Below, piece by piece: positions 3,223-14,435 of a stretch of DNA of 24,000 bases. The position numbers and the translations under genes are program-made. Each line of letters begins with the position of its first letter. Within the stretch, counting starts at the first letter, position 1. Below the pieces are notes generated by a model that saw only the letters and a list, made by a program, of their open reading frames with translations, ran no database searches and was not told where the DNA came from. Source of the stretch: Promethearchaeati archaeon (GTDB lineage: Archaea; Asgardarchaeota; Heimdallarchaeia; JABLTI01); NCBI GenBank assembly GCA_013166835.1, contig JABLTI010000029.1, positions 5,579 through 29,578 of the forward strand, written 5' to 3'.

Positions 3223-6200
3223 TTACTTTTCTTTCAATAAATCGCTAAGATTACTAACTCCAAAAGGTCCAATCTGTTCTAATTGCGTTGCGAGAATAAA
3301 GAGAGTGTTGAGTGTTATCGTTTCTCTTGGTTTTACTTTGATTTCTCGAGTATTTTTTGTCAAAGAAATATGAGTTAGATTTGGTGAATACGGATAAACG
3401 CTGCTAATAAATTGACCTCTTGAACAAGCAACACCAAAGTAATATTTGTTATCTGCTTTCTTAAATGCAGACCATAAGTTTCCATATAACTTTTCATAAC
3501 CAACTTCAGATTCATGATTCTGCAGTTTGTAAGTCATAGTTTTTCCTTGTTTATCTTGAATGAAATAACGGTCTCTTTCAGAATTTGATGTTTTCAAATC
3601 GGCAGTAGTATGAGCATAGAGATTCCTCGTGGATCCCGACAGATTTGTAAATACTTGTTGACCTAAGACAATAGGAGAATCAGGGAGTGTTAGGAATCGA
3701 TTTTCCACTTGTATGCCCTTTATTGCCGGATGAAATGTTAACACGTTTGATTTGAATCCAATACCTTTCCAATTACCTTCTTCTATTTCATAAGAATCAA
3801 AGGTGATATTGTCAAAGTACTTCTCATCACCAATCCAGAAGTGTTTTGGTTTTACTATGGGTCCGAGTCCACCATAAAAGTGATTAAACCATAAGAATGG
3901 TTTGCTTTCTGGGAAGTTTGTAAGCAAGTAATTATGATCATCATCTGCTGGTGATAAGAAGAAAACATAGCCCTTGAAATCCTTACTTCCTTTGAATTTC
4001 AAGTATCCATTGTTGACTTCTAAAACTTCTTTATTATCAACTAATGATTTTGTTATTGTGACATCCTCTTTCTTATCAAAGAATGCAAAAGCTATAGGTG
4101 TATCATACTTTTTGGTTTTACAATCAAAGGTGATTTTACCACCCACAACATAGCTTTTTGGTGCTTTTATTTTGATTTCTTCTTGCCAAAATCTTCCTTT
4201 GTGAGATTTAATTTTGAAGCTACTCGGTTCTGTTATTTTTTCTTTGAGAGAGATATCGACTTTTCCTTTTAATGTTGTAGTTCCTGAAGCATCAAAAGCC
4301 ACATCTATTGTTTTCTGATTCTTATCAAGAATTACTCCTTGAGCTAGTGTTTCACCTTCAATTTTATTGATGAATCCAAATTGTTTCATATTTTCCGGGA
4401 AATGATAAAATTGCAATTCATTTTCAGGGGAGTAATGAAACTTGTCTTGCCACATTTTCCTAACTGCTTGCCAGGAATCTGTAAAATAGTAATAAGTAAA
4501 TGGTGTTTCATAACTAGTTTTGCCTTTCAACTCAGCTATTTTATAATCGACACTTGGAAATCTTCTGGGTCGGATTTTATCAATTTTATTTAAATCATGG
4601 AGAAATCCAATTGTTCCACTTACGTACTCGGTTGCTCTCCAACCCTCAGAAAAATCTGATGGATCATCTTCGAAAATAGTTGGAACTTCATACATGTTTC
4701 CAGTTTTTATTCCATCCTTTGTTGGAATAATTATATTCTTAACATCAGTTTGTCCAGGCCACCAATAGGAACCTAGTTGTATACCTAGGTCACCGATTGG
4801 TTTATCAGTGAGATTTTCTACCAAATATTTGAAACCGATTGGCTCATTGCTTGTTGGGATAAAGGCCTTTCTTGTTACTTTAATTCCTTTTTTATCCTCT
4901 GATAGTCCAGTACTATGTATCCAAACACCATTAGATTCTTCTTTAATTTCATGTTCCAATTGTAGATTAAAGAATTCACTTCCATCATCATCAAAAGGAT
5001 AGCCTAGAATTATAGCATTACCATTTATACACAATCTTCTAAGTTTGTCAGTGATATAGATTTCATTTGACCAAGGTTGTGGTTTTCTATTGAATTTCAC
5101 TAAGTAATGTTTGTTTTCTATGTAAACAAGCTCCTCAAATTCATATACCACAGATTTGTTTTCGTTGAAGATGACAACAGGTAAGAGTCTCTCTTGTAAT
5201 AATTCATTATCCTTTGTTGTAGCTCTAACCTTAACAAAATCAACAACTGTATCTGTGCTTCCAGTCTCAGCAGCAACCTCAAGTATTGTATCATATTTTG
5301 AAATTTTCACTTCGTGTTGCTTTTTCTTAAAAGTAATGAAATTTGTATCTGTTAATTCAATTTTAATTGCTTTTTCTTCATCAAAGCAATTTATAATTTC
5401 AAGAGGTAATGTAAATTGATGATTTGGAATGGTATTATAATTTACTGGAGCTGTCAAGATCTTAATTGCATGTAATGGTGCTTTCCCTATTCTTATTGGA
5501 AAACTTACTCCATCGCTTTCAATATTAAATGTAATTTGATGTTCACTGTAGTTTTGATGATGTATTTTCATATCAAATTCATTAGTATCATAAGCAAAAC
5601 TAGCTGTAAATTGGAGAATTTTCTCCTCTTTTGGCTTTACAATTATTTCTTGTTTTTCAACTTTTAATTTGATTTTATCAGAAATTTGAGTATTAATTTG
5701 AAACTTCTTTTCAGTAGAGCCATTATTTCTGATTGTCAATGTTATTGGAAATTCCTCAAAACCAATGAATGCTTCAGTATTTGGTACAGTTGCTTTCACA
5801 AATAAATCATCATTCTCAGTTTTCTTATGGAACCCACTAATGCAGCCAATGCTTCTATCTATCCAAACTTCTAGAGAATTTTTCTCATCCATTACAAAAT
5901 CGTATTTGTAGATTGCCATTTTCTCTTCGAATTCTTCATCCGGAATTTGATTAATTACTGGTTTAAAGGAATTATACCATGAATACTTCTCAAACATCTC
6001 TTGGAGAAGTGGATAAACCAGTATTTGAGGAAGATAATTCTCAAGATAACAAGAAGTATTAGGTCGCCACTTGTAACCTTGCTTCTTGTAAAGAGGCATC
6101 GCCTTAAGATTTCCACCCCACGTATGGAGAGAAATTAATGGAGCTTTATGTTTTAGTGCGTGTCTAGTGGATTCTAAGAGAAGAGCTTTTCCAAATTTCT

Positions 6201-6573
6201 GTCCTTGATATGCAGGATCAACCCCTATCAACTGAACATACCAAGCATCAGATAGATTCCATGATCTACTACAGATACTTACTCCCACTATTTTATTCTC
6301 ATCATCAGGGGCATTAATAATGAAACGGCTTGAATGATCAAGACCTTTGAATCTCTTTTCTAAATATTCACCAGTAAATTCGAAATTCCCACCAAAACCA
6401 CCTGGCCAGCTATCGGTATCATTGAAAGTCTTATAGCAACTCGCTAATGCATCGTAGTCTTTTCTTTCCTCACGTAATGTTCTAATCAATTCTGTTTTTT
6501 CATCTTGTAGGAAGATTATTTCTCTGATGTCCATACTGGTCTTATCAGTGCTTTTTTTAGGGTTCATTTCCAT
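3223..6573 (-). CDS. Large GNAT-family N-acetyltransferase fusion protein: N-terminal GNAT domain plus about 930 aa of uncharacterised beta-rich region
   Basis: 1116-aa ORF. Residues about 85-175 carry GNAT motif A, 'WYVQLIGVDPAYQGQKFGKALLLES' (Q-x-x-G-x-G/A acetyl-CoA loop), and 'AMPLYKKQGYKW' (motif B). No N-terminal signal or TM segment. The remainder has no motif I recognise. GGTGG lies directly before the first ATG and 6 nt before the in-frame ATG at 6567, so the start may be 6567. Confidence 0.8.
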   Translation of the reverse strand: MEMNPKKSTDKTSMDIREIIFLQDEKTELIRTLREERKDYDALASCYKTFNDTDSWPGGFGGNFEFTGEYLEKRFKGLDHSSRFIINAPDDENKIVGVSICSRSWNLSDAWYVQLIGVDPAYQGQKFGKALLLESTRHALKHKAPLISLHTWGGNLKAMPLYKKQGYKWRPNTSCYLENYLPQILVYPLLQEMFEKYSWYNSFKPVINQIPDEEFEEKMAIYKYDFVMDEKNSLEVWIDRSIGCISGFHKKTENDDLFVKATVPNTEAFIGFEEFPITLTIRNNGSTEKKFQINTQISDKIKLKVEKQEIIVKPKEEKILQFTASFAYDTNEFDMKIHHQNYSEHQITFNIESDGVSFPIRIGKAPLHAIKILTAPVNYNTIPNHQFTLPLEIINCFDEEKAIKIELTDTNFITFKKKQHEVKISKYDTILEVAAETGSTDTVVDFVKVRATTKDNELLQERLLPVVIFNENKSVVYEFEELVYIENKHYLVKFNRKPQPWSNEIYITDKLRRLCINGNAIILGYPFDDDGSEFFNLQLEHEIKEESNGVWIHSTGLSEDKKGIKVTRKAFIPTSNEPIGFKYLVENLTDKPIGDLGIQLGSYWWPGQTDVKNIIIPTKDGIKTGNMYEVPTIFEDDPSDFSEGWRATEYVSGTIGFLHDLNKIDKIRPRRFPSVDYKIAELKGKTSYETPFTYYYFTDSWQAVRKMWQDKFHYSPENELQFYHFPENMKQFGFINKIEGETLAQGVILDKNQKTIDVAFDASGTTTLKGKVDISLKEKITEPSSFKIKSHKGRFWQEEIKIKAPKSYVVGGKITFDCKTKKYDTPIAFAFFDKKEDVTITKSLVDNKEVLEVNNGYLKFKGSKDFKGYVFFLSPADDDHNYLLTNFPESKPFLWFNHFYGGLGPIVKPKHFWIGDEKYFDNITFDSYEIEEGNWKGIGFKSNVLTFHPAIKGIQVENRFLTLPDSPIVLGQQVFTNLSGSTRNLYAHTTADLKTSNSERDRYFIQDKQGKTMTYKLQNHESEVGYEKLYGNLWSAFKKADNKYYFGVACSRGQFISSVYPYSPNLTHISLTKNTREIKVKPRETITLNTLFILATQLEQIGPFGVSNLSDLLKEK

Positions 6574-8397: not shown

Positions 8398-9444
8398 TTA
8401 GAATCTCCTAGGAGCTCTAGGATAGGATTTATACTTCGTTCGAGGTTCTGTGCTAATCCAATCACCAGATTCATCTAGATGTGAGAGTGATCTCAAGATA
8501 TCAAAGGTTACCCACCTAGTTGCTTGGGGATTTGGAATATAGTCCCACAACCCATATGTTCCTTGTACCTCTTGTAAGTATTTCACCATATTTGCTACTC
8601 TTGGATCTTCTGTTGTCGCACCTATTCTCCAACATAGATTTAGAATTAATGCTAAATCATAGCGTCCATGGAAGGTTAGGAAGCCATGTGCTGGCTCTAT
8701 ACCAATTATCCTTGCTACTTCGAATCCTAGATAGTTTCTATCTTTAGTTTCTCTAGAGAGTAATAAATCAAGCACTCTTTTTGGTACATCTGTGTTTCTT
8801 CTTTTTGGATGATAGGCAAATGCATTCAGAGCACTGGTACTATTTGTTCTACAACCAAATCGCGAATTTGGAAGTTGACGGTAACCAACAGGTTGATAAC
8901 CTATTTTCCCATCTGGAGAGAAAATTGTAGGCCAAGAACCATCCTCTGCTCGATGTTCTATCAGCCACTCATAAGCCTTCTCTGCTCGAGAGTCTTCGGC
9001 AAAACCACTTATAGCTAAGGCAAATAATGGATCAGCTGTTTGTTTTGGTGTTATTGCTGGACCATGGGTGGGATGTATAAAATGTAAAACTCTGCCTGGT
9101 TGTCTTGGCCAGGCTCCATCATCGAATTGATGAGTGAAGAGGTATTCTGCGGCTTTTTGTATTGCTGGATGATCGTTTTGTAACCCCAAATAACCTAATC
9201 TAATCATTGCAAGGGAAGTATTCCTAATTGGACTATCTAGTAATAATCCTAATGATTCACTTGTTGACCATGAACCATCTTTTTGTTGAATAGCTAGTAG
9301 AGCAGTTATCAAAGGATCTTTTTGTTGTTGTCTAATCAATTCCTTGATTTCTTTATCATCAACGTCTTTATGCAAAAGCTCTTTCAAAACCAATAATCGA
9401 AGAGAAGGAGAAGCATCACCTAGTAATAATGGTAACCAAGTCAT
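8398..9444 (-). CDS. QW-repeat alpha/alpha-toroid protein (terpene cyclase / prenyltransferase / squalene-oxidase-repeat fold), function unknown
   Basis: Four matches to the QW motif [KR][AG]xx[FYW][LIV]xxxQxxxGxW: KAAEYLFTHQFDDGAW (aa 97-112), KAYEWLIEHRAEDGSW (156-171, R in place of Q), NMVKYLQEVQGTYGLW (285-300), and a looser LLAIQQKDGSW (49-59). No signal peptide. The start ATG overlaps the upstream gene's stop (ATGA at 9441-9444). GGAGGG lies 6 nt upstream. Confidence 0.75.
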   Translation of the reverse strand: MTWLPLLLGDASPSLRLLVLKELLHKDVDDKEIKELIRQQQKDPLITALLAIQQKDGSWSTSESLGLLLDSPIRNTSLAMIRLGYLGLQNDHPAIQKAAEYLFTHQFDDGAWPRQPGRVLHFIHPTHGPAITPKQTADPLFALAISGFAEDSRAEKAYEWLIEHRAEDGSWPTIFSPDGKIGYQPVGYRQLPNSRFGCRTNSTSALNAFAYHPKRRNTDVPKRVLDLLLSRETKDRNYLGFEVARIIGIEPAHGFLTFHGRYDLALILNLCWRIGATTEDPRVANMVKYLQEVQGTYGLWDYIPNPQATRWVTFDILRSLSHLDESGDWISTEPRTKYKSYPRAPRRF

Positions 9445-12400
9445 AAGTTACCCTCCAAGACTTTTTTGATGTATACTGCTGATGGAGTTTTTCCAAGAGA
9501 TACTTTCTCCGGAGTCTCTGAGGCAACAATTAACCCACCTTCTGGTCCTCCAACTGGACCAAGCTCAATTAACCAATCGCACGCAGCTAAAACATTCGGA
9601 TGATGTTCAACTACTATTACTGTGTTTCCAGCATCGACAAGTCGCTGAAGTATTCCTATTAAGCGTTCAACATCTTCTAAGTGTTGTCCAACTGTAGGCT
9701 CATCGAGGATATATAATGTATGATCTTTCGTTTTCTTACATAGCTCTTTCGCTATCTTCATTCTCTGAGCTTCTCCACCAGACAAGGTGTATCTTGGTTG
9801 TTGCAATACAAGATAACCTAGACCAACGTCAATTGCTGCTTTCAAGTGCCGAGCTATAGTTTCATTCTCATCCTTGAAGAGTCTATAAACTTGGTTGATA
9901 GTTAATTTCAGAAGATCTGGCAAAGAAAATTCTTTTACTTTGACTTCCCACGCCTCTGGTATAAAACCGGTTCCTTTACAGATATCACAACTTGAGTAAA
10001 CAGTAGGTAGGAAACCCATTTCCATTCTTATTCGACCGGTACCCTTGCAAGCGGAGCAACCTCGTTTGTAATGTTTATCCGTAATTCCAAGAATATCAGC
10101 CTCTGCTGTTTCTGTATAGATTTTGATTAGAGGATTTAGTAATCCAAAGAATCTTAGGGGACTGTAGATGTTTCTCTTCGATTGATCAACTAGTAAAGCA
10201 TTCTTTGGTGAACCTTCTATTGATTCATGTTCTCCAGGTTTCATTCGTTCACTATGTATAGAAGTAGTCAATTTCTTTGGAGCAACAACATTTCCAAGAG
10301 TATCTATAATTAATGTGCTTTTTCCACTTCCTGATACGCCACAAACTCCAACTAAAACTCCAAGAGGAATTTTAACATCTATGTTTTGTAGATTATGTTC
10401 CTTAGCACCTTTTATTGTCATCCATTTAGTGGCTTTTCTTCTTGGTTCGGAAATTAGTTTTAGTTGTTCATCTTGATTTGTGTGGTATGGATTTGTTTTC
10501 TTTTTCCCTGATAACCAATTAGATGTTGTAGTATTCATTTTCATAATTTCTTCAATTGAACCTTGTGCAATAATCTCTCCACCAGCAACTCCTGAACCAG
10601 GACCAAGGTCAATTATATGATCTGCTCCGGTTATTATCTCTGGATCATGTTCCACAACAACAACCGAATTGCCATCATTTCGAAGTTCTAGTAGGACATC
10701 TAGAAGATCATTTACTTCTGAGGGATGCAATCCTCGAGTAGGTTCATCAAGGAGAATAGTAAGGGAGGTTAAACCACTTCCAAGAATAGAAGCTAATCGT
10801 AATCGTTCGTATTCACCAGCAGATAAATTATATGTCGGACGATCGGGATTAATATACCCAAGACCAACTTTTATCAGATAATTCAATCTCTTGGTTAACT
10901 TCTCAAGATTTTGCTGCAGTAATTCTACCCCTATAAAATCTGAGGGTTCAATTTTCTTAATTACCTTTGCTAGATTTTTAATGGTCATTTGTCGCAATTG
11001 ATGAATGTTGAAACCTTTTAATTTGAAAGCTAAATATTCTTCTTTTAATTTCTGCCCATTACAAACATCACAAGTGAATTTGTCGCTATAAGTTTCAAAT
11101 AAGTCACCATAACTAAACCAGCTAAATCCACCCCACGCCTGAAAAACTCCCCAAACTCGCTGGTCTCGAACATATTTGATTATTTTTCCTTTGCTTCTTC
11201 CCTCTACTTCGAACTCCCACTTCTCATCTGAGCCATAAAGGAAGATCTGTTTCGCTTCCTCCGGAATTTCATTCCAAGGAGTTTTTTGAGGATCGAAATT
11301 ATATCTCATTGCAATTTCTTTTAACAAGTAATAAGCTGAATTTAGTGGTTTGCAGTAGTAACCATAAGGCCAAAAACCAGGCGAGTACATTGCACCATCA
11401 CAAATCGGTTTCTCAGGATGAATGATTAATTTATCAATATTAGGTGTCCCAATAAATCCTAAGCCTTTACATTTTTCACAACTGGAAATCAAGCTTACTG
11501 GCGAGAAATGAGTTGGTCTCACAAAACTAGCTGTGGATTTGCATTTCGGACAAATCCAATGTTCTTCTCCTCTTCTCATCATGGTTCTACATTCTAGACA
11601 TTCTCGCTCTCCTATGTGAGTCATAAATGTATAAAGATGATCAGCTATCTCACTTACATTTCCAACCGTATACCTCGGATCAATACGCCAAGCACTCCTA
11701 AAAGATCTAAGAATAGCTGTAACTCCTAATCCTGTGATAGAATCTACTGGTGCTTCTGGACCTTCATTCATACTTTGACGTTCATAAATCGATAAACTCT
11801 CGAGAAATCTTCGTCTGGCTTCTAATTCTAAAACATCATTAACTAAACTCGATTTACCTGAACCCGATATACCCGTAACAACTGCAAGTTTGCCTTTCGG
11901 GATATCCACACTGATATTTTTTAGATTGTTTGCTCTTGCTCCTTTAACAGAAATTACATCAGAGTGTTGGAATTTCTTCTCACTCGTAAGAGTTCTAGGA
12001 GTGTATTCTTCTTCTTCCAGAAGTGCTTTACTTGTTAGAGATTTTTTACACTTTAGTAGATCATTTACAGTCCCACTAAAGATTAATTCACCACCAAATG
12101 GTCCTGCTCCCGGGCCAAGATCGATAATCCAATCCGCAGCTCGAATTATATCCGTATTATGTTCGACAATAACTATTGTTGCTCCTGCTCTTACAAGTCT
12201 ATCAAATACAACTAACAAGCCAGAAATATCACTTGGATGTAAACCAGTACTTGGTTCATCTAAAACAATAAGATTTTCAGTAAGATTTCTTCTTCCAAGA
12301 TATTTCGCTAATTTTACTCTTTGAGCTTCTCCCCCACTCAGAGTTGGTGATGCTTGTCCTAGATGTAAATAACCCAGTCCAATATCTATTAGTGCTTTCA

Positions 12401-14435
12401 AAATTGATTCCGCACTTTTTCGATTCTTTTCCGAGAGATATTCACTCTCGAGTATATAGGGAGTAGCCTCTCTAATACTAAGATTATAAAAATCCCCTAT
12501 AGATAATACATCACCATTGAATTCTACATTTGCATCTAGTATTTCTTGTTTAAACCTTAAACCACGACATTTCTCACATGGAAGCCAAATTGGAGCAATG
12601 TAGGGCATTTTTACTTCCATGGCTCCTAAACCTTCACACTCTTCACACTGACCATCTTTCCTATTAAATGTAAAATGAGATTTCGTAAAATTAGTTGCCG
12701 CAGCAAAAATATCTCGAATAATATCTGAGAGCTTTGTATAGGTAGCTGGATTTGATCTTGGATTCCTACCAATTGGACTCTGATCGACTAATACTGGTTT
12801 CTTCTTTCTACCAATAACCTCTTCACAACCTTGAGGTTCCTTTTTCAATAAACTTGCAACTAAGACATCTTTAACTAGAGTGCTTTTTCCAGAACCAGAA
12901 ACTCCAGTTACTGCAGAAATTCTTTGAAGTGGTAATTGAATATCTATCCCCTTCAAATTTCTGAAGATTGCATTTTTTATAGTAAGAAACTTATCGGGTT
13001 GTGGTCGTAATTCAGGTATGACTACTTTATCCCGGAAACTAAAATAACGACCAGTTGGACTATCTTCAGACCACAGATTCTTAGCTGTTCCATGGAAAAC
13101 GATCTCTCCTCCTTCTCTCCCTGCTCCTGGTCCGATATCAATCGCTTGATCTGCTACTGCTGCAGCCATTCGGTCATGTTCAACATACACTACTGGACCT
13201 GCTAATTCCCGGAAAGCTGGTAGAAATTTCATGACATCATTTGGGTGTTGACCAATTGTTGGTTCATCAAGTATGTGAAGCATGTCTTCAAGTCTACTAG
13301 TAAGAATTATTGCAAGTCTTACTCTTTGAGCTTCTCCTCTCGAGAGAGTAGGAGATGACCTATTTAATGAAATATAACCCAAACCAACTCTGTGGAGTGC
13401 ATTTATTCTTCTTGTAATTTCATCCTTTAATCTATCAGCTGTTTTTGGCAGAAAAACAGTCTCAAATAATTTCTTAATTTCACTCACAGATAGTTTCAGA
13501 AGATCAGGTAGCATTAAGCCATTCCATCTCACTGCGACAGCTTCAGGATGAAGCCCTGTAGAATGACATAACTCACAACCTTTTCCCTTACACGCTTCAC
13601 AAGGCATATGGAAATACTTGGGTTCAAGTTCTGTGAACCAGTAATTACAATTAGTGCAAATTCTTGTTTTCGCTAATTTTGTTTCTTCATCTTTTGCGCG
13701 AACAATTATGTAGGAGGATCCTAATTCAAAAACTTGCTGTATAATCTCTCTTATCTGCTTTGTATTCGCTTTCTTTGTGAGTACAGCCAATTTTATTTCG
13801 ATATTATGCTCTTTATTTGGATCTAAAGACTTACCATCCCAATTTTTCTTGTCAATTATTATCGATTCATTATCGAATTTTTCCTCTAACATACTTAGGA
13901 GAGTTTTATGACTTCCTAATGATTGCTGATTAACAGGTGCTAGAATCTCAATTGTATCCGTACTCACTTTATTTCTAACAATGTCTATTATTGCATCCTC
14001 TGAATGAACAGCTAAACCAGAACTGCACTCTGGACAGAAACGAATGCCAAAATTTGCAAATAAAATTCTAAAGAAAGGATGTAAACCTGAAGAAGTTGCT
14101 AACGTTGAGAGTGGATTACGATTTAAGACATTTTGATCTACAGCAACAGCAGGACTAATTCCTGTAATGGTATTTACATTTGCTTTTGGGAGTCTTAATC
14201 GAGTAGAGCGAGGAGTAAAAATATCAAGAAATCTTCTGCGAGCTTCATGATATAAGGTGTCATACACAAGTGAACTTTTTCCAGAACCGGAAATTCCAGT
14301 AACAACCGTTAAACCATCTTGTATTTCTACATCCACGTTTTTCAGATTGTTTTCTTTCGCACCCTCGATTTTGATTTTCATCGAAATCTCTCGACTTTTC
14401 GCATCTCTGAAGTGTTTACCCTTTTTCCTTCTCAC
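9441..14435 (-). CDS. Tandemly duplicated UvrA-like ABC ATPase (excinuclease ABC subunit A paralogue) with four nucleotide-binding domains
   Basis: Walker A motifs: GISGSGKS (aa 47-54), GVSGSGKS (511-518), GISGSGKS (855-862), GVSGSGKS (1366-1373). Signature motifs: LSRGE 364, LSGGE 699, LSAGE 1204, LSGGE 1551. Walker B motifs: ILDEP 388, VLDEP 724, LLDEP 1228, ILDEP 1576. There are multiple CxxC zinc modules. Both halves begin with the UvrA hallmark I-x-[GV]-[AK]-x-x-x-NLKN. The tracked ORF starts at GTG 14435. By homology the likelier start is ATG 14381 (MKIKIEGAKENNLKN). Confidence 0.92.
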   Translation of the reverse strand: MRRKKGKHFRDAKSREISMKIKIEGAKENNLKNVDVEIQDGLTVVTGISGSGKSSLVYDTLYHEARRRFLDIFTPRSTRLRLPKANVNTITGISPAVAVDQNVLNRNPLSTLATSSGLHPFFRILFANFGIRFCPECSSGLAVHSEDAIIDIVRNKVSTDTIEILAPVNQQSLGSHKTLLSMLEEKFDNESIIIDKKNWDGKSLDPNKEHNIEIKLAVLTKKANTKQIREIIQQVFELGSSYIIVRAKDEETKLAKTRICTNCNYWFTELEPKYFHMPCEACKGKGCELCHSTGLHPEAVAVRWNGLMLPDLLKLSVSEIKKLFETVFLPKTADRLKDEITRRINALHRVGLGYISLNRSSPTLSRGEAQRVRLAIILTSRLEDMLHILDEPTIGQHPNDVMKFLPAFRELAGPVVYVEHDRMAAAVADQAIDIGPGAGREGGEIVFHGTAKNLWSEDSPTGRYFSFRDKVVIPELRPQPDKFLTIKNAIFRNLKGIDIQLPLQRISAVTGVSGSGKSTLVKDVLVASLLKKEPQGCEEVIGRKKKPVLVDQSPIGRNPRSNPATYTKLSDIIRDIFAAATNFTKSHFTFNRKDGQCEECEGLGAMEVKMPYIAPIWLPCEKCRGLRFKQEILDANVEFNGDVLSIGDFYNLSIREATPYILESEYLSEKNRKSAESILKALIDIGLGYLHLGQASPTLSGGEAQRVKLAKYLGRRNLTENLIVLDEPSTGLHPSDISGLLVVFDRLVRAGATIVIVEHNTDIIRAADWIIDLGPGAGPFGGELIFSGTVNDLLKCKKSLTSKALLEEEEYTPRTLTSEKKFQHSDVISVKGARANNLKNISVDIPKGKLAVVTGISGSGKSSLVNDVLELEARRRFLESLSIYERQSMNEGPEAPVDSITGLGVTAILRSFRSAWRIDPRYTVGNVSEIADHLYTFMTHIGERECLECRTMMRRGEEHWICPKCKSTASFVRPTHFSPVSLISSCEKCKGLGFIGTPNIDKLIIHPEKPICDGAMYSPGFWPYGYYCKPLNSAYYLLKEIAMRYNFDPQKTPWNEIPEEAKQIFLYGSDEKWEFEVEGRSKGKIIKYVRDQRVWGVFQAWGGFSWFSYGDLFETYSDKFTCDVCNGQKLKEEYLAFKLKGFNIHQLRQMTIKNLAKVIKKIEPSDFIGVELLQQNLEKLTKRLNYLIKVGLGYINPDRPTYNLSAGEYERLRLASILGSGLTSLTILLDEPTRGLHPSEVNDLLDVLLELRNDGNSVVVVEHDPEIITGADHIIDLGPGSGVAGGEIIAQGSIEEIMKMNTTTSNWLSGKKKTNPYHTNQDEQLKLISEPRRKATKWMTIKGAKEHNLQNIDVKIPLGVLVGVCGVSGSGKSTLIIDTLGNVVAPKKLTTSIHSERMKPGEHESIEGSPKNALLVDQSKRNIYSPLRFFGLLNPLIKIYTETAEADILGITDKHYKRGCSACKGTGRIRMEMGFLPTVYSSCDICKGTGFIPEAWEVKVKEFSLPDLLKLTINQVYRLFKDENETIARHLKAAIDVGLGYLVLQQPRYTLSGGEAQRMKIAKELCKKTKDHTLYILDEPTVGQHLEDVERLIGILQRLVDAGNTVIVVEHHPNVLAACDWLIELGPVGGPEGGLIVASETPEKVSLGKTPSAVYIKKVLEGNL
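9451..9456 (-). promoter_or_regulatory. Shine-Dalgarno-like GGAGGG embedded in the 3' end of the UvrA-like gene, serving the downstream toroid gene
   Basis: The minus strand reads GGAGGG-TAACTT-ATGA. The spacing to the ATG at 9444 is 6 nt, and the TGA of the upstream ORF overlaps that ATG. Confidence 0.5.

Follow-up and report, generated by a model that had tools for sequence, protein, structure and literature searches.

Class I UvrA proteins, such as those of E. coli, G. stearothermophilus, T. maritima and M. tuberculosis, feature in each module two ATP-binding cassette (ABC) nucleotide-binding domains (NBDs) and three zinc modules, with both a UvrB-binding domain (UBD) and a DNA-binding insertion domain (ID) inserted in signature domain I. 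Class II UvrAs (D. radiodurans UvrA2, the drug-resistance proteins DrrC and Ecm16), of about 840 aa, are homodimeric, carry two IDs and lack the UBD entirely. Tandem UvrAs, where two modules are joined in one chain, are already known to databases: NCBIfam models one type, the Chlamydia type (NF001885/PRK00635, a profile of 1809 positions). It has long been debated whether UvrA and UvrB assemble as A2B2 or as A2B1, and how a symmetric UvrA dimer loads one UvrB on the damaged strand. Here we describe a tandem UvrA in which the UBD fold and the ID are found on different halves of the same chain, together with the gene that follows it, coding for a terpene-cyclase-fold protein. Both genes are located in a stretch of 24,000 nucleotides (in the following, the window) of contig JABLTI010000029.1, from a Promethearchaeati archaeon of the Heimdallarchaeia; it belongs to the Asgard archaea, the archaea nearest eukaryotes.

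The tandem UvrA was found as an automatically delimited open reading frame (ORF) of 1664 aa (9441..14435, minus strand), starting with a GTG at nt 14435, from which all residues are numbered. It contains four ABC ATPase domains, with Walker A motifs at residues 47, 511, 855 and 1366, and twelve CxxC motifs, corresponding to six zinc modules. Those of half 1 are CPEC 134, CTNC 260, CEAC 279, CELC 287 and, in the C-terminal zinc finger (Zn3), CEEC 597 and CEKC 620; those of half 2 are CLEC 946, CPKC 962, CEKC 986, CDVC 1122 and, in Zn3, CSAC 1460 and CDIC 1483. A preliminary description, made from the sequence alone, had deduced from the spacing of these motifs that half 1 retains a UBD and lacks the ID, while half 2 shows the opposite arrangement. 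The motifs it listed are each found at the residue given, its nucleotide ranges are right (13659-14024 for residues 138-259, 11073-11456 for residues 994-1121), and the E. coli ID sequence that it quoted agrees with E. coli UvrA.

The presence of a UBD fold and the absence of an ID are supported for half 1 by several tests. PF17760 (UvrA_inter) matches half 1 only, at residues 145-248 (E 1.6e-6; 28.4 bits, with a gathering cut-off of 23.3). Residues 138-259 can be aligned, residue by residue, with the UBDs of T. maritima, C. thermocellum and E. coli UvrA; in a three-way MAFFT alignment of the two halves with E. coli UvrA (sequence from NC_000913.3), the domain pairs with E. coli residues 118-256, and E. 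coli residues 281-405, corresponding to the ID, face a gap. The phmmer alignment of half 1 to T. maritima UvrA (3pih) covers residues 4-283 and then 382-911 of the latter, skipping its ID (284-381). The structure predicted by AlphaFold2 for half 1 has a mean predicted local distance difference test score (pLDDT) of 88.5 and a predicted template modelling score (pTM) of 0.83; the UBD-like domain is a confident alpha/beta fold within it (pLDDT about 88-94). The top Foldseek match of this model is 3uwx_A, the UvrA chain of the UvrA-UvrB crystal complex (TM-score 0.78, E 8e-74).

The same tests support the presence of an ID, and the absence of a UBD, in half 2. PF17755 (UvrA_DNA-bind) matches this half only, at residues 990-1121 (E 5.5e-8; 33.5 bits, cut-off 23.2), a segment which pairs with E. 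coli residues 281-405 in the three-way alignment; it is E. coli residues from about 128 to 249 that face a gap here. By phmmer, half 2 matches residues 6-127 and then 247-904 of 3pih, skipping the UBD (128-246). The AlphaFold2 model, built like that of half 1 on a 47-sequence alignment, scores 82.7 (pLDDT) and 0.77 (pTM), and its top Foldseek matches, 9ga5_A and 9gxw_A (TM-score 0.79-0.80), are UvrA chains in which the ID is ordered and a UBD is not visible. A second UBD or ID that is hidden or diverged was also considered, and rejected because the loops between the CxxC pairs concerned are only 4 (half 1) and 12 (half 2) residues long. Residues 138-259 are UBD-like, residues 994-1121 are ID-like, and the two halves carry different domain sets, as the preliminary description had it. 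The positions of all features are collected in Table 1.

Table 1. Features of the tandem UvrA gene and of its downstream partner. Positions are those of the window, unless a locus is indicated (L002 to L012, other loci carrying the gene pair).
Feature	Position	Strand	Remarks
Tandem (double) UvrA gene	9441..14381	-	1646 aa from likely start M19
Half 1	11949..14381	-	ORF aa 19-829; NBD-I and NBD-II, UBD-like domain, no ID
UBD-like fold	13659..14024	-	aa 138-259, between CPEC 134 and CTNC 260 of zinc module 1; Pfam, alignments, AlphaFold2
Collapsed zinc module 2 of half 1	13566..13601	-	aa 279-290, CEACKGKGCELC; ID absent
Zn3 of half 1	12567..12647	-	C-terminal zinc finger, CEEC 597 ... CEKC 620
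Linker between the modules	11937..12011	-	about 25 residues, poorly conserved; column entropy 2.57, highest of all segments
Half 2	9444..11948	-	ORF aa 830-1664; NBD-I and NBD-II, ID, no UBD
Collapsed zinc module 1 of half 2	11541..11600	-	CLEC 946 ... CPKC 962, 12-residue loop; no UBD
Insertion (DNA-binding) domain	11073..11468	-	aa 990-1121, within zinc module 2 (CEKC 986/CDVC 1122)
Zn3 of half 2	9978..10058	-	C-terminal zinc finger, CSAC 1460 ... CDIC 1483
Downstream partner gene	8398..9444	-	348 aa; terpene-cyclase/prenyltransferase-like alpha/alpha-toroid repeat
Partner copy	L002:14920-16008
Partner copy	L004:14860-15894
Partner copy	L006:6750-7790
Partner copy	L007:6226-7257
Partner copy	L009:4915-5598
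Partner copy	L010:14896-15933
Partner copy	L012:5219-5455

The tandem shares with class I UvrA the organization of each module and the insertion points of the two accessory folds, at 37-40% identity. Unlike in class I UvrA, the modules are covalently joined and each is permanently short of one accessory domain: where a class I module contains both UBD and ID, half 1 contains the UBD fold only and half 2 the ID only. Half 2 taken alone resembles class II UvrA, with an ID and no UBD (TM-score 0.78 by Foldseek to UvrA2, 2vf7), although its sequence is nearer to class I (539 bits against 3pih, 406 against UvrA2); the whole protein, however, has one ID instead of two and, in half 1, a UBD fold, which class II lacks throughout. 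With the Chlamydia-type protein it has in common two modules with unequal domain sets, but its score to PRK00635 is 877 bits, with a cut-off of 3054; only the tandem arrangement is shared. The complete protein scores above the cut-offs of two NCBIfam UvrA models (1398 bits for TIGR00630, uvra, cut-off 729.8; 1338 for PRK00349, cut-off 1147), only because the scores of the two modules add up: single halves remain below both (698 and 659 bits for the former, 683 and 656 for the latter). The tandem is a member of the UvrA family by homology, which nevertheless lacks several defining features of class I, class II and Chlamydia-type tandem proteins.

A search of 5.8 billion proteins yielded more than 120 relatives of 1611-1679 aa, with 53-93% identity, from Heimdallarchaeota and other Asgard archaea, Bathyarchaeia, Chloroflexi/Anaerolineae and one bin labelled Desulfatiglandales. 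The best match (93%) comes from a Heimdallarchaeota metagenome-assembled genome; a scan of genome contigs found only one near-identical Heimdallarchaeota contig, of 4.1 kb. Patterns were counted on 119 full-length homologues, and single alignment columns on 120 members. The order of the domains was scored with purpose-built hidden Markov models (HMMs), which gave P-UBD-ID-P (P stands for Walker A) for E. coli UvrA, used as control. The order P-UBD-P-P-ID-P was found in all 119 homologues and in 10 clusters at 50% identity, the ID being matched by its HMM in all family members. The twelve CxxC motifs are also common to these homologues, with the exception of P0030 and P0032, where one of the two motifs is missing from the collapsed zinc module 1 of half 2; one extra motif is present in four others. 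In half 1 the motif spacings are about 126 and 8 residues, the latter, in the collapsed zinc module 2, being preserved in nearly every homologue; in half 2 they are 15-27 and about 126-136. The complementary layout is a fixed feature of the family, and no accident of this one gene.

These homologues also bear on a trivial explanation, namely that two adjacent UvrA-like genes were merged through a mistake in assembly or sequencing, or that divergent domains were missed. Only the general error rate of metagenome assemblies speaks for it, while one uninterrupted ORF of 1611-1679 aa is found in 119 full-length homologues from independent sources, and AlphaFold2 predicts both collapsed modules with confidence: an artefact is extremely improbable, and an assembly chimera was rejected on account of the independent homologues.

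Among the folded parts of the protein, conservation is lowest in the UBD-like domain (column entropy 1.97); the length of this domain is fixed throughout the family, with no gaps and several invariant residues. The domain appears to be variable, yet not decaying.

The gene located downstream overlaps the UvrA stop codon by 4 nt. Its product matches the Pfam families SQHop_cyclase_C and SQHop_cyclase_N (PF13243: 42.3 bits, cut-off 26.1) and, over repeat segments, the squalene-hopene cyclase 3sqc (E 1.3e-16). The alpha/alpha-toroid repeat fold of squalene/terpene cyclases is therefore present, but the protein is shorter than a full cyclase (348 aa versus about 630) and its score for the curated family TIGR01787, 37.9 bits, is far under the cut-off of 322.7. 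A total of 797 homologues were found for it. The residues conserved at 95% or more do not include a DxDD motif; the invariant ones include GYR 187-189, GCRxN 197-201, HP 212-213 and RET 231-233.

The association of the two genes is constant. In nine out of nine contexts, the window and eight other loci, a UvrA gene and a partner of about 345 aa overlap by 4 nt. These contexts span Asgard archaea, Bathyarchaeia and two Chloroflexi; among them is a member whose identity to half 1 is only about 40%. Apart from the pair, the flanking genes are unrelated. The two genes have diverged to a similar extent, with 48-60% identity for the partner and 53-64% for UvrA. Neither uvrB nor uvrC was found in the 24 kb of the window or around the eight other loci, whose flanks cover 0.2-10 kb (a full 10 kb on either side for three loci, less for the others). 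Genes for major facilitator superfamily (MFS) transporters lie at most two genes away from the cassette in three of the eight other contexts (L002:16590-18173, L004:16283-17602, L010:8458-9813); none is near the cassette in the window. By analogy, these neighbors recall the drug-resistance loci of class II UvrA, but their proximity may be due to chance, since MFS genes are common.

Other tandem UvrAs are followed by different genes. In L011:6001-15100, a tandem UvrA of 1783 aa with layout P-UBD-ID-P-P-UBD-P, and in L013:2899-12457, a fully duplicated one of 1938 aa, are each followed by two genes, again with 4-nt overlaps: the first codes for an XPB/ERCC3-like superfamily 2 helicase of about 575 aa, the second for a Helicase_C_3 protein of about 674 aa. 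These two UBD-bearing types have XPB-like helicases downstream and no terpene-cyclase-fold protein, while the sole UBD-less tandem examined has no co-directional downstream gene.

The structural meaning of the complementary layout may be appreciated by comparison with a known intermediate. In the M. tuberculosis UvrA2UvrB1-DNA complex, solved by cryo-electron microscopy (cryo-EM), the protomer bound to UvrB has released its ID, while the "recognition ID" of the other protomer holds the lesion; according to the authors, UBD-UvrB and ID-DNA binding are mutually exclusive within one protomer (PMC11985968). In this class I A2B1 state the UBD is engaged on one protomer and the ID on the other, as they are distributed on the halves of the tandem; the layout of the latter matches the domain disposition of the asymmetric intermediate. 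With this state built into the tandem UvrA, clamping by a single ID and a single effector at a fixed side would be expected.

The interpretation that we favor, with a probability of about 0.5, is that the protein is a hard-wired asymmetric DNA sensor and a single-effector recruiter, whose effector is most likely the terpene-cyclase-fold protein encoded downstream, instead of UvrB or besides it. The two modules would pair within one chain, as the protomers of a UvrA dimer do, and the tandem would bind and probe DNA with ATP, clamping it by one ID and two Zn3 hairpins. Exactly one effector, presumably the translationally coupled protein of about 345 aa, would be recruited by way of the one UBD-fold domain, always at the same side of the complex. 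In canonical complexes the other protomer provides a second contact with UvrB, through its signature domain II (PMC12796330); for a contact of this type, half 2 would take that role here. UvrA and its partner would then constitute a mobile two-gene module for DNA surveillance or DNA protection, rather than a plain subunit of nucleotide excision repair (NER).

Whether UvrB is bound by the UBD-like domain was evaluated on the residues R216 and E222, which define the UvrB/Mfd interaction surface of E. coli UvrA, as given second-hand in PMC3025350. The helix which carries them aligns gap-free with the complementary family, anchored by the conserved equivalent of E. coli E226. The R216 column contains E, K, Q, R, D or H; the E222 column contains Q in 82 of 120 members, and the D205 column A or G in 113 of 120. 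Among 102 UBDs from other tandem UvrAs, 73 keep R216 and 50 keep E222. The partner-binding domain of the preliminary description holds as far as the fold is concerned, but not for these UvrB-contact residues; because they are not conserved, UvrB itself is only a putative ligand.

The ATP sites and the DNA-contacting residues also deviate from the canonical pattern. The catalytic Lys of Walker A, the Asp-Glu of Walker B and the His of the H-loop are invariant in the four NBDs across the family. Instead of the canonical LSGGE, the NBD-I signature reads LSRGE (half 1) and LSAGE (half 2), neither of which varies across the family. The NBD-II motif 'DQSPIGRxPRSNPATY' is kept in half 1 as DQSPIGRNPRSNPATYT and is degenerate in half 2 (DQSK..RNIYS.PLRF; window 10180-10260), and NBD-I of half 2 features no equivalent of the Q-loop Gln, in a region of low pLDDT (window 11600-11948, aa about 883-925). 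As the Q-loop and NBD-II motif of half 2 and the signature motifs deviate, the four ATP sites are probably not equivalent. In the alignment, neither half has equivalents of the E. coli DNA-binding arginines R722, R724 and R730. Remodelling has thus affected the DNA-contacting surface and one or more of the ATP sites, which fits a specialised rather than a housekeeping function. Compared to class I UvrA, the tandem lacks conserved R216 and E222, the UvrB-contact residues, as well as several DNA-binding arginines of signature domain II, and its gene is paired with a terpene-cyclase-fold gene rather than with uvrB or uvrC.

These data are also the ground for weighing an ordinary role in NER, where the tandem would replace the UvrA dimer, its single UBD would load one host UvrB, UvrC would incise, and the downstream gene would be unrelated or accessory. 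Such a role would agree with strong UvrA homology throughout the protein (1398 bits to TIGR00630, and solved UvrA structures at E about 1e-157), with a UBD fold of fixed length in every member, with the existence of the A2B1 state in canonical NER (PMC11985968) and with the report of UvrABC in Asgard archaea (PMC12993045). It is a serious rival, although made rather unlikely by the lack of conservation of the R216/E222 equivalents, unlike in other tandem UvrAs, by the missing counterparts of R722, R724 and R730, by each half falling alone under the NCBIfam UvrA cut-offs and by the genomic context, uvrB or uvrC being adjacent in none of the nine contexts and a terpene-cyclase-like gene, with overlapping stop and start, in all nine.

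Like class II UvrA, the tandem is probably accessory to core NER. A stand-alone activity of the type of DrrC and Ecm16 may be imagined, where DNA-bound small molecules or distortions are recognised and cleared at the expense of ATP, the UBD-like domain is a structural remnant and the neighbor has a separate role, for example in handling the released compound. The class II layout of half 2 (TM-score 0.78 with D. radiodurans UvrA2), the fact that Ecm16 needs no UvrB, UvrC or UvrD, the weak conservation of the UBD-like domain and the MFS genes close to three of the eight other cassettes are in line with it. A remnant, however, would not be expected to keep a fixed, gap-free length and several invariant residues, the 4-nt overlap with the partner in nine contexts out of nine argues for a stoichiometric complex, and MFS genes, common in general, are not found near the cassette in the window. 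This explanation is regarded as improbable.

Some observations weigh against the asymmetric sensor with a partner other than UvrB. The AlphaFold2 models represent separate halves, and the intramolecular pseudo-dimer is putative. UvrABC has been reported for Asgard archaea (PMC12993045), and a host UvrB may therefore be available. Two residues past the R216 column, an invariant Arg is found, so that some UvrB-type contact is possible, and the low conservation of the UBD-like domain, the least conserved among the folded parts, may reflect relaxed constraint rather than specialization. The partner has no match in the PADLOC defence library, and we know of no DNA-related function for it.

Nevertheless, the altered contact surface, the invariable partner and the XPB-like pairs next to UBD-bearing types suggest that the UBD fold of tandem UvrAs may be a docking module for whichever effector lies downstream. 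On this basis a broader proposal may be advanced, which we hold as tentative and somewhat doubtful: the gene pair would be a system not described before, moving horizontally between archaea and bacteria, in which the asymmetric UvrA pseudo-dimer senses a lesion, an adduct or a foreign DNA feature, and the re-surfaced UBD recruits a non-helicase effector, with no need for UvrB or UvrC; tandem UvrAs in general would be modular sensors of DNA, each type having a dedicated effector encoded downstream. A natural UvrA "dimer", with one docking and one DNA-clamping domain on different halves, offers a ready-made test of whether one of each suffices, and of whether the asymmetric intermediate seen by cryo-EM is the working state. 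Reuse of the UvrA scaffold for partners that are not UvrB is suggested by its invariable terpene-cyclase-fold neighbor, and likewise by the XPB-like helicase pairs of other tandem UvrAs; if this is true, the repertoire of prokaryotic DNA surveillance, including that of Asgard archaea, is wider.

In order to place the family among other tandem UvrAs, half 1 was scored against 1.84 billion cluster representatives, and the top 150 matches were classified. Almost all are tandem UvrAs, of about 1550-2340 aa. The commonest layout in this sample is P-UBD-ID-P-P-UBD-P (45 representatives), followed by tandem class II, P-ID-P-P-ID-P (25-30), by the fully duplicated layout, with both domains in both halves (19), and by the complementary P-UBD-P-P-ID-P (10, plus fragments); the remainder falls into smaller classes. 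These counts describe diversity and not abundance, because the ranking favors double-length proteins. Unequal domain sets are common among tandem UvrAs, while the exactly complementary one defines a single clade: elsewhere the UBD, the ID or both are present twice, and only here one of each is found, on different halves. Three of the proteins, P0250 (2334 aa), P0256 (2343 aa) and P0348 (2166 aa), contain about 300-500 residues beyond two full UvrA modules.

Distances were compared for 255 UvrA halves. In the complementary clade, first halves cluster together and second halves do likewise; outside this family, distances are near saturation and star-like. Half 1 and half 2 are separated by 1.16-1.23, and lie at 0.97 and 1.05 from E. 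coli UvrA; the mean distance between halves is 0.72 in fully duplicated tandems. Since the two halves are more distant from each other than from E. coli UvrA, duplication followed by complementary loss and fusion of already diverged modules appear equally possible as origins. Of the sub-functionalisation initially proposed, the complementary domain sets are supported, and a loss following duplication is one of two possible routes. No paper on the complementary tandem architecture, on its gene pair or on a UvrA-XPB operon was found in the open literature, most subscription journals being outside its coverage.

A few minor features complete the description of the window. Membership in a known defence system was considered and set aside, as the PADLOC matches, mad3 and mad8, reflect generic homology to ABC/UvrA-like NBDs. 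A further ORF of 1116 aa (window 3223-6573, minus strand) has as sole Pfam match a GNAT acetyltransferase, near residues 75-168, the other 950 or so residues being without Pfam annotation. Where the half-1 model ends, in the linker between the UvrA modules, pLDDT drops under 50. As for the beginning of the gene, homologues start 18 residues downstream of the GTG, and the true start is therefore probably M19, an ATG at nt 14381. The 18 codons between the GTG and this ATG (window 14381-14435, minus strand) would code for an extra basic N-terminal peptide, MRRKKGKHFRDAKSREIS, which probably lies outside the translated tandem UvrA.

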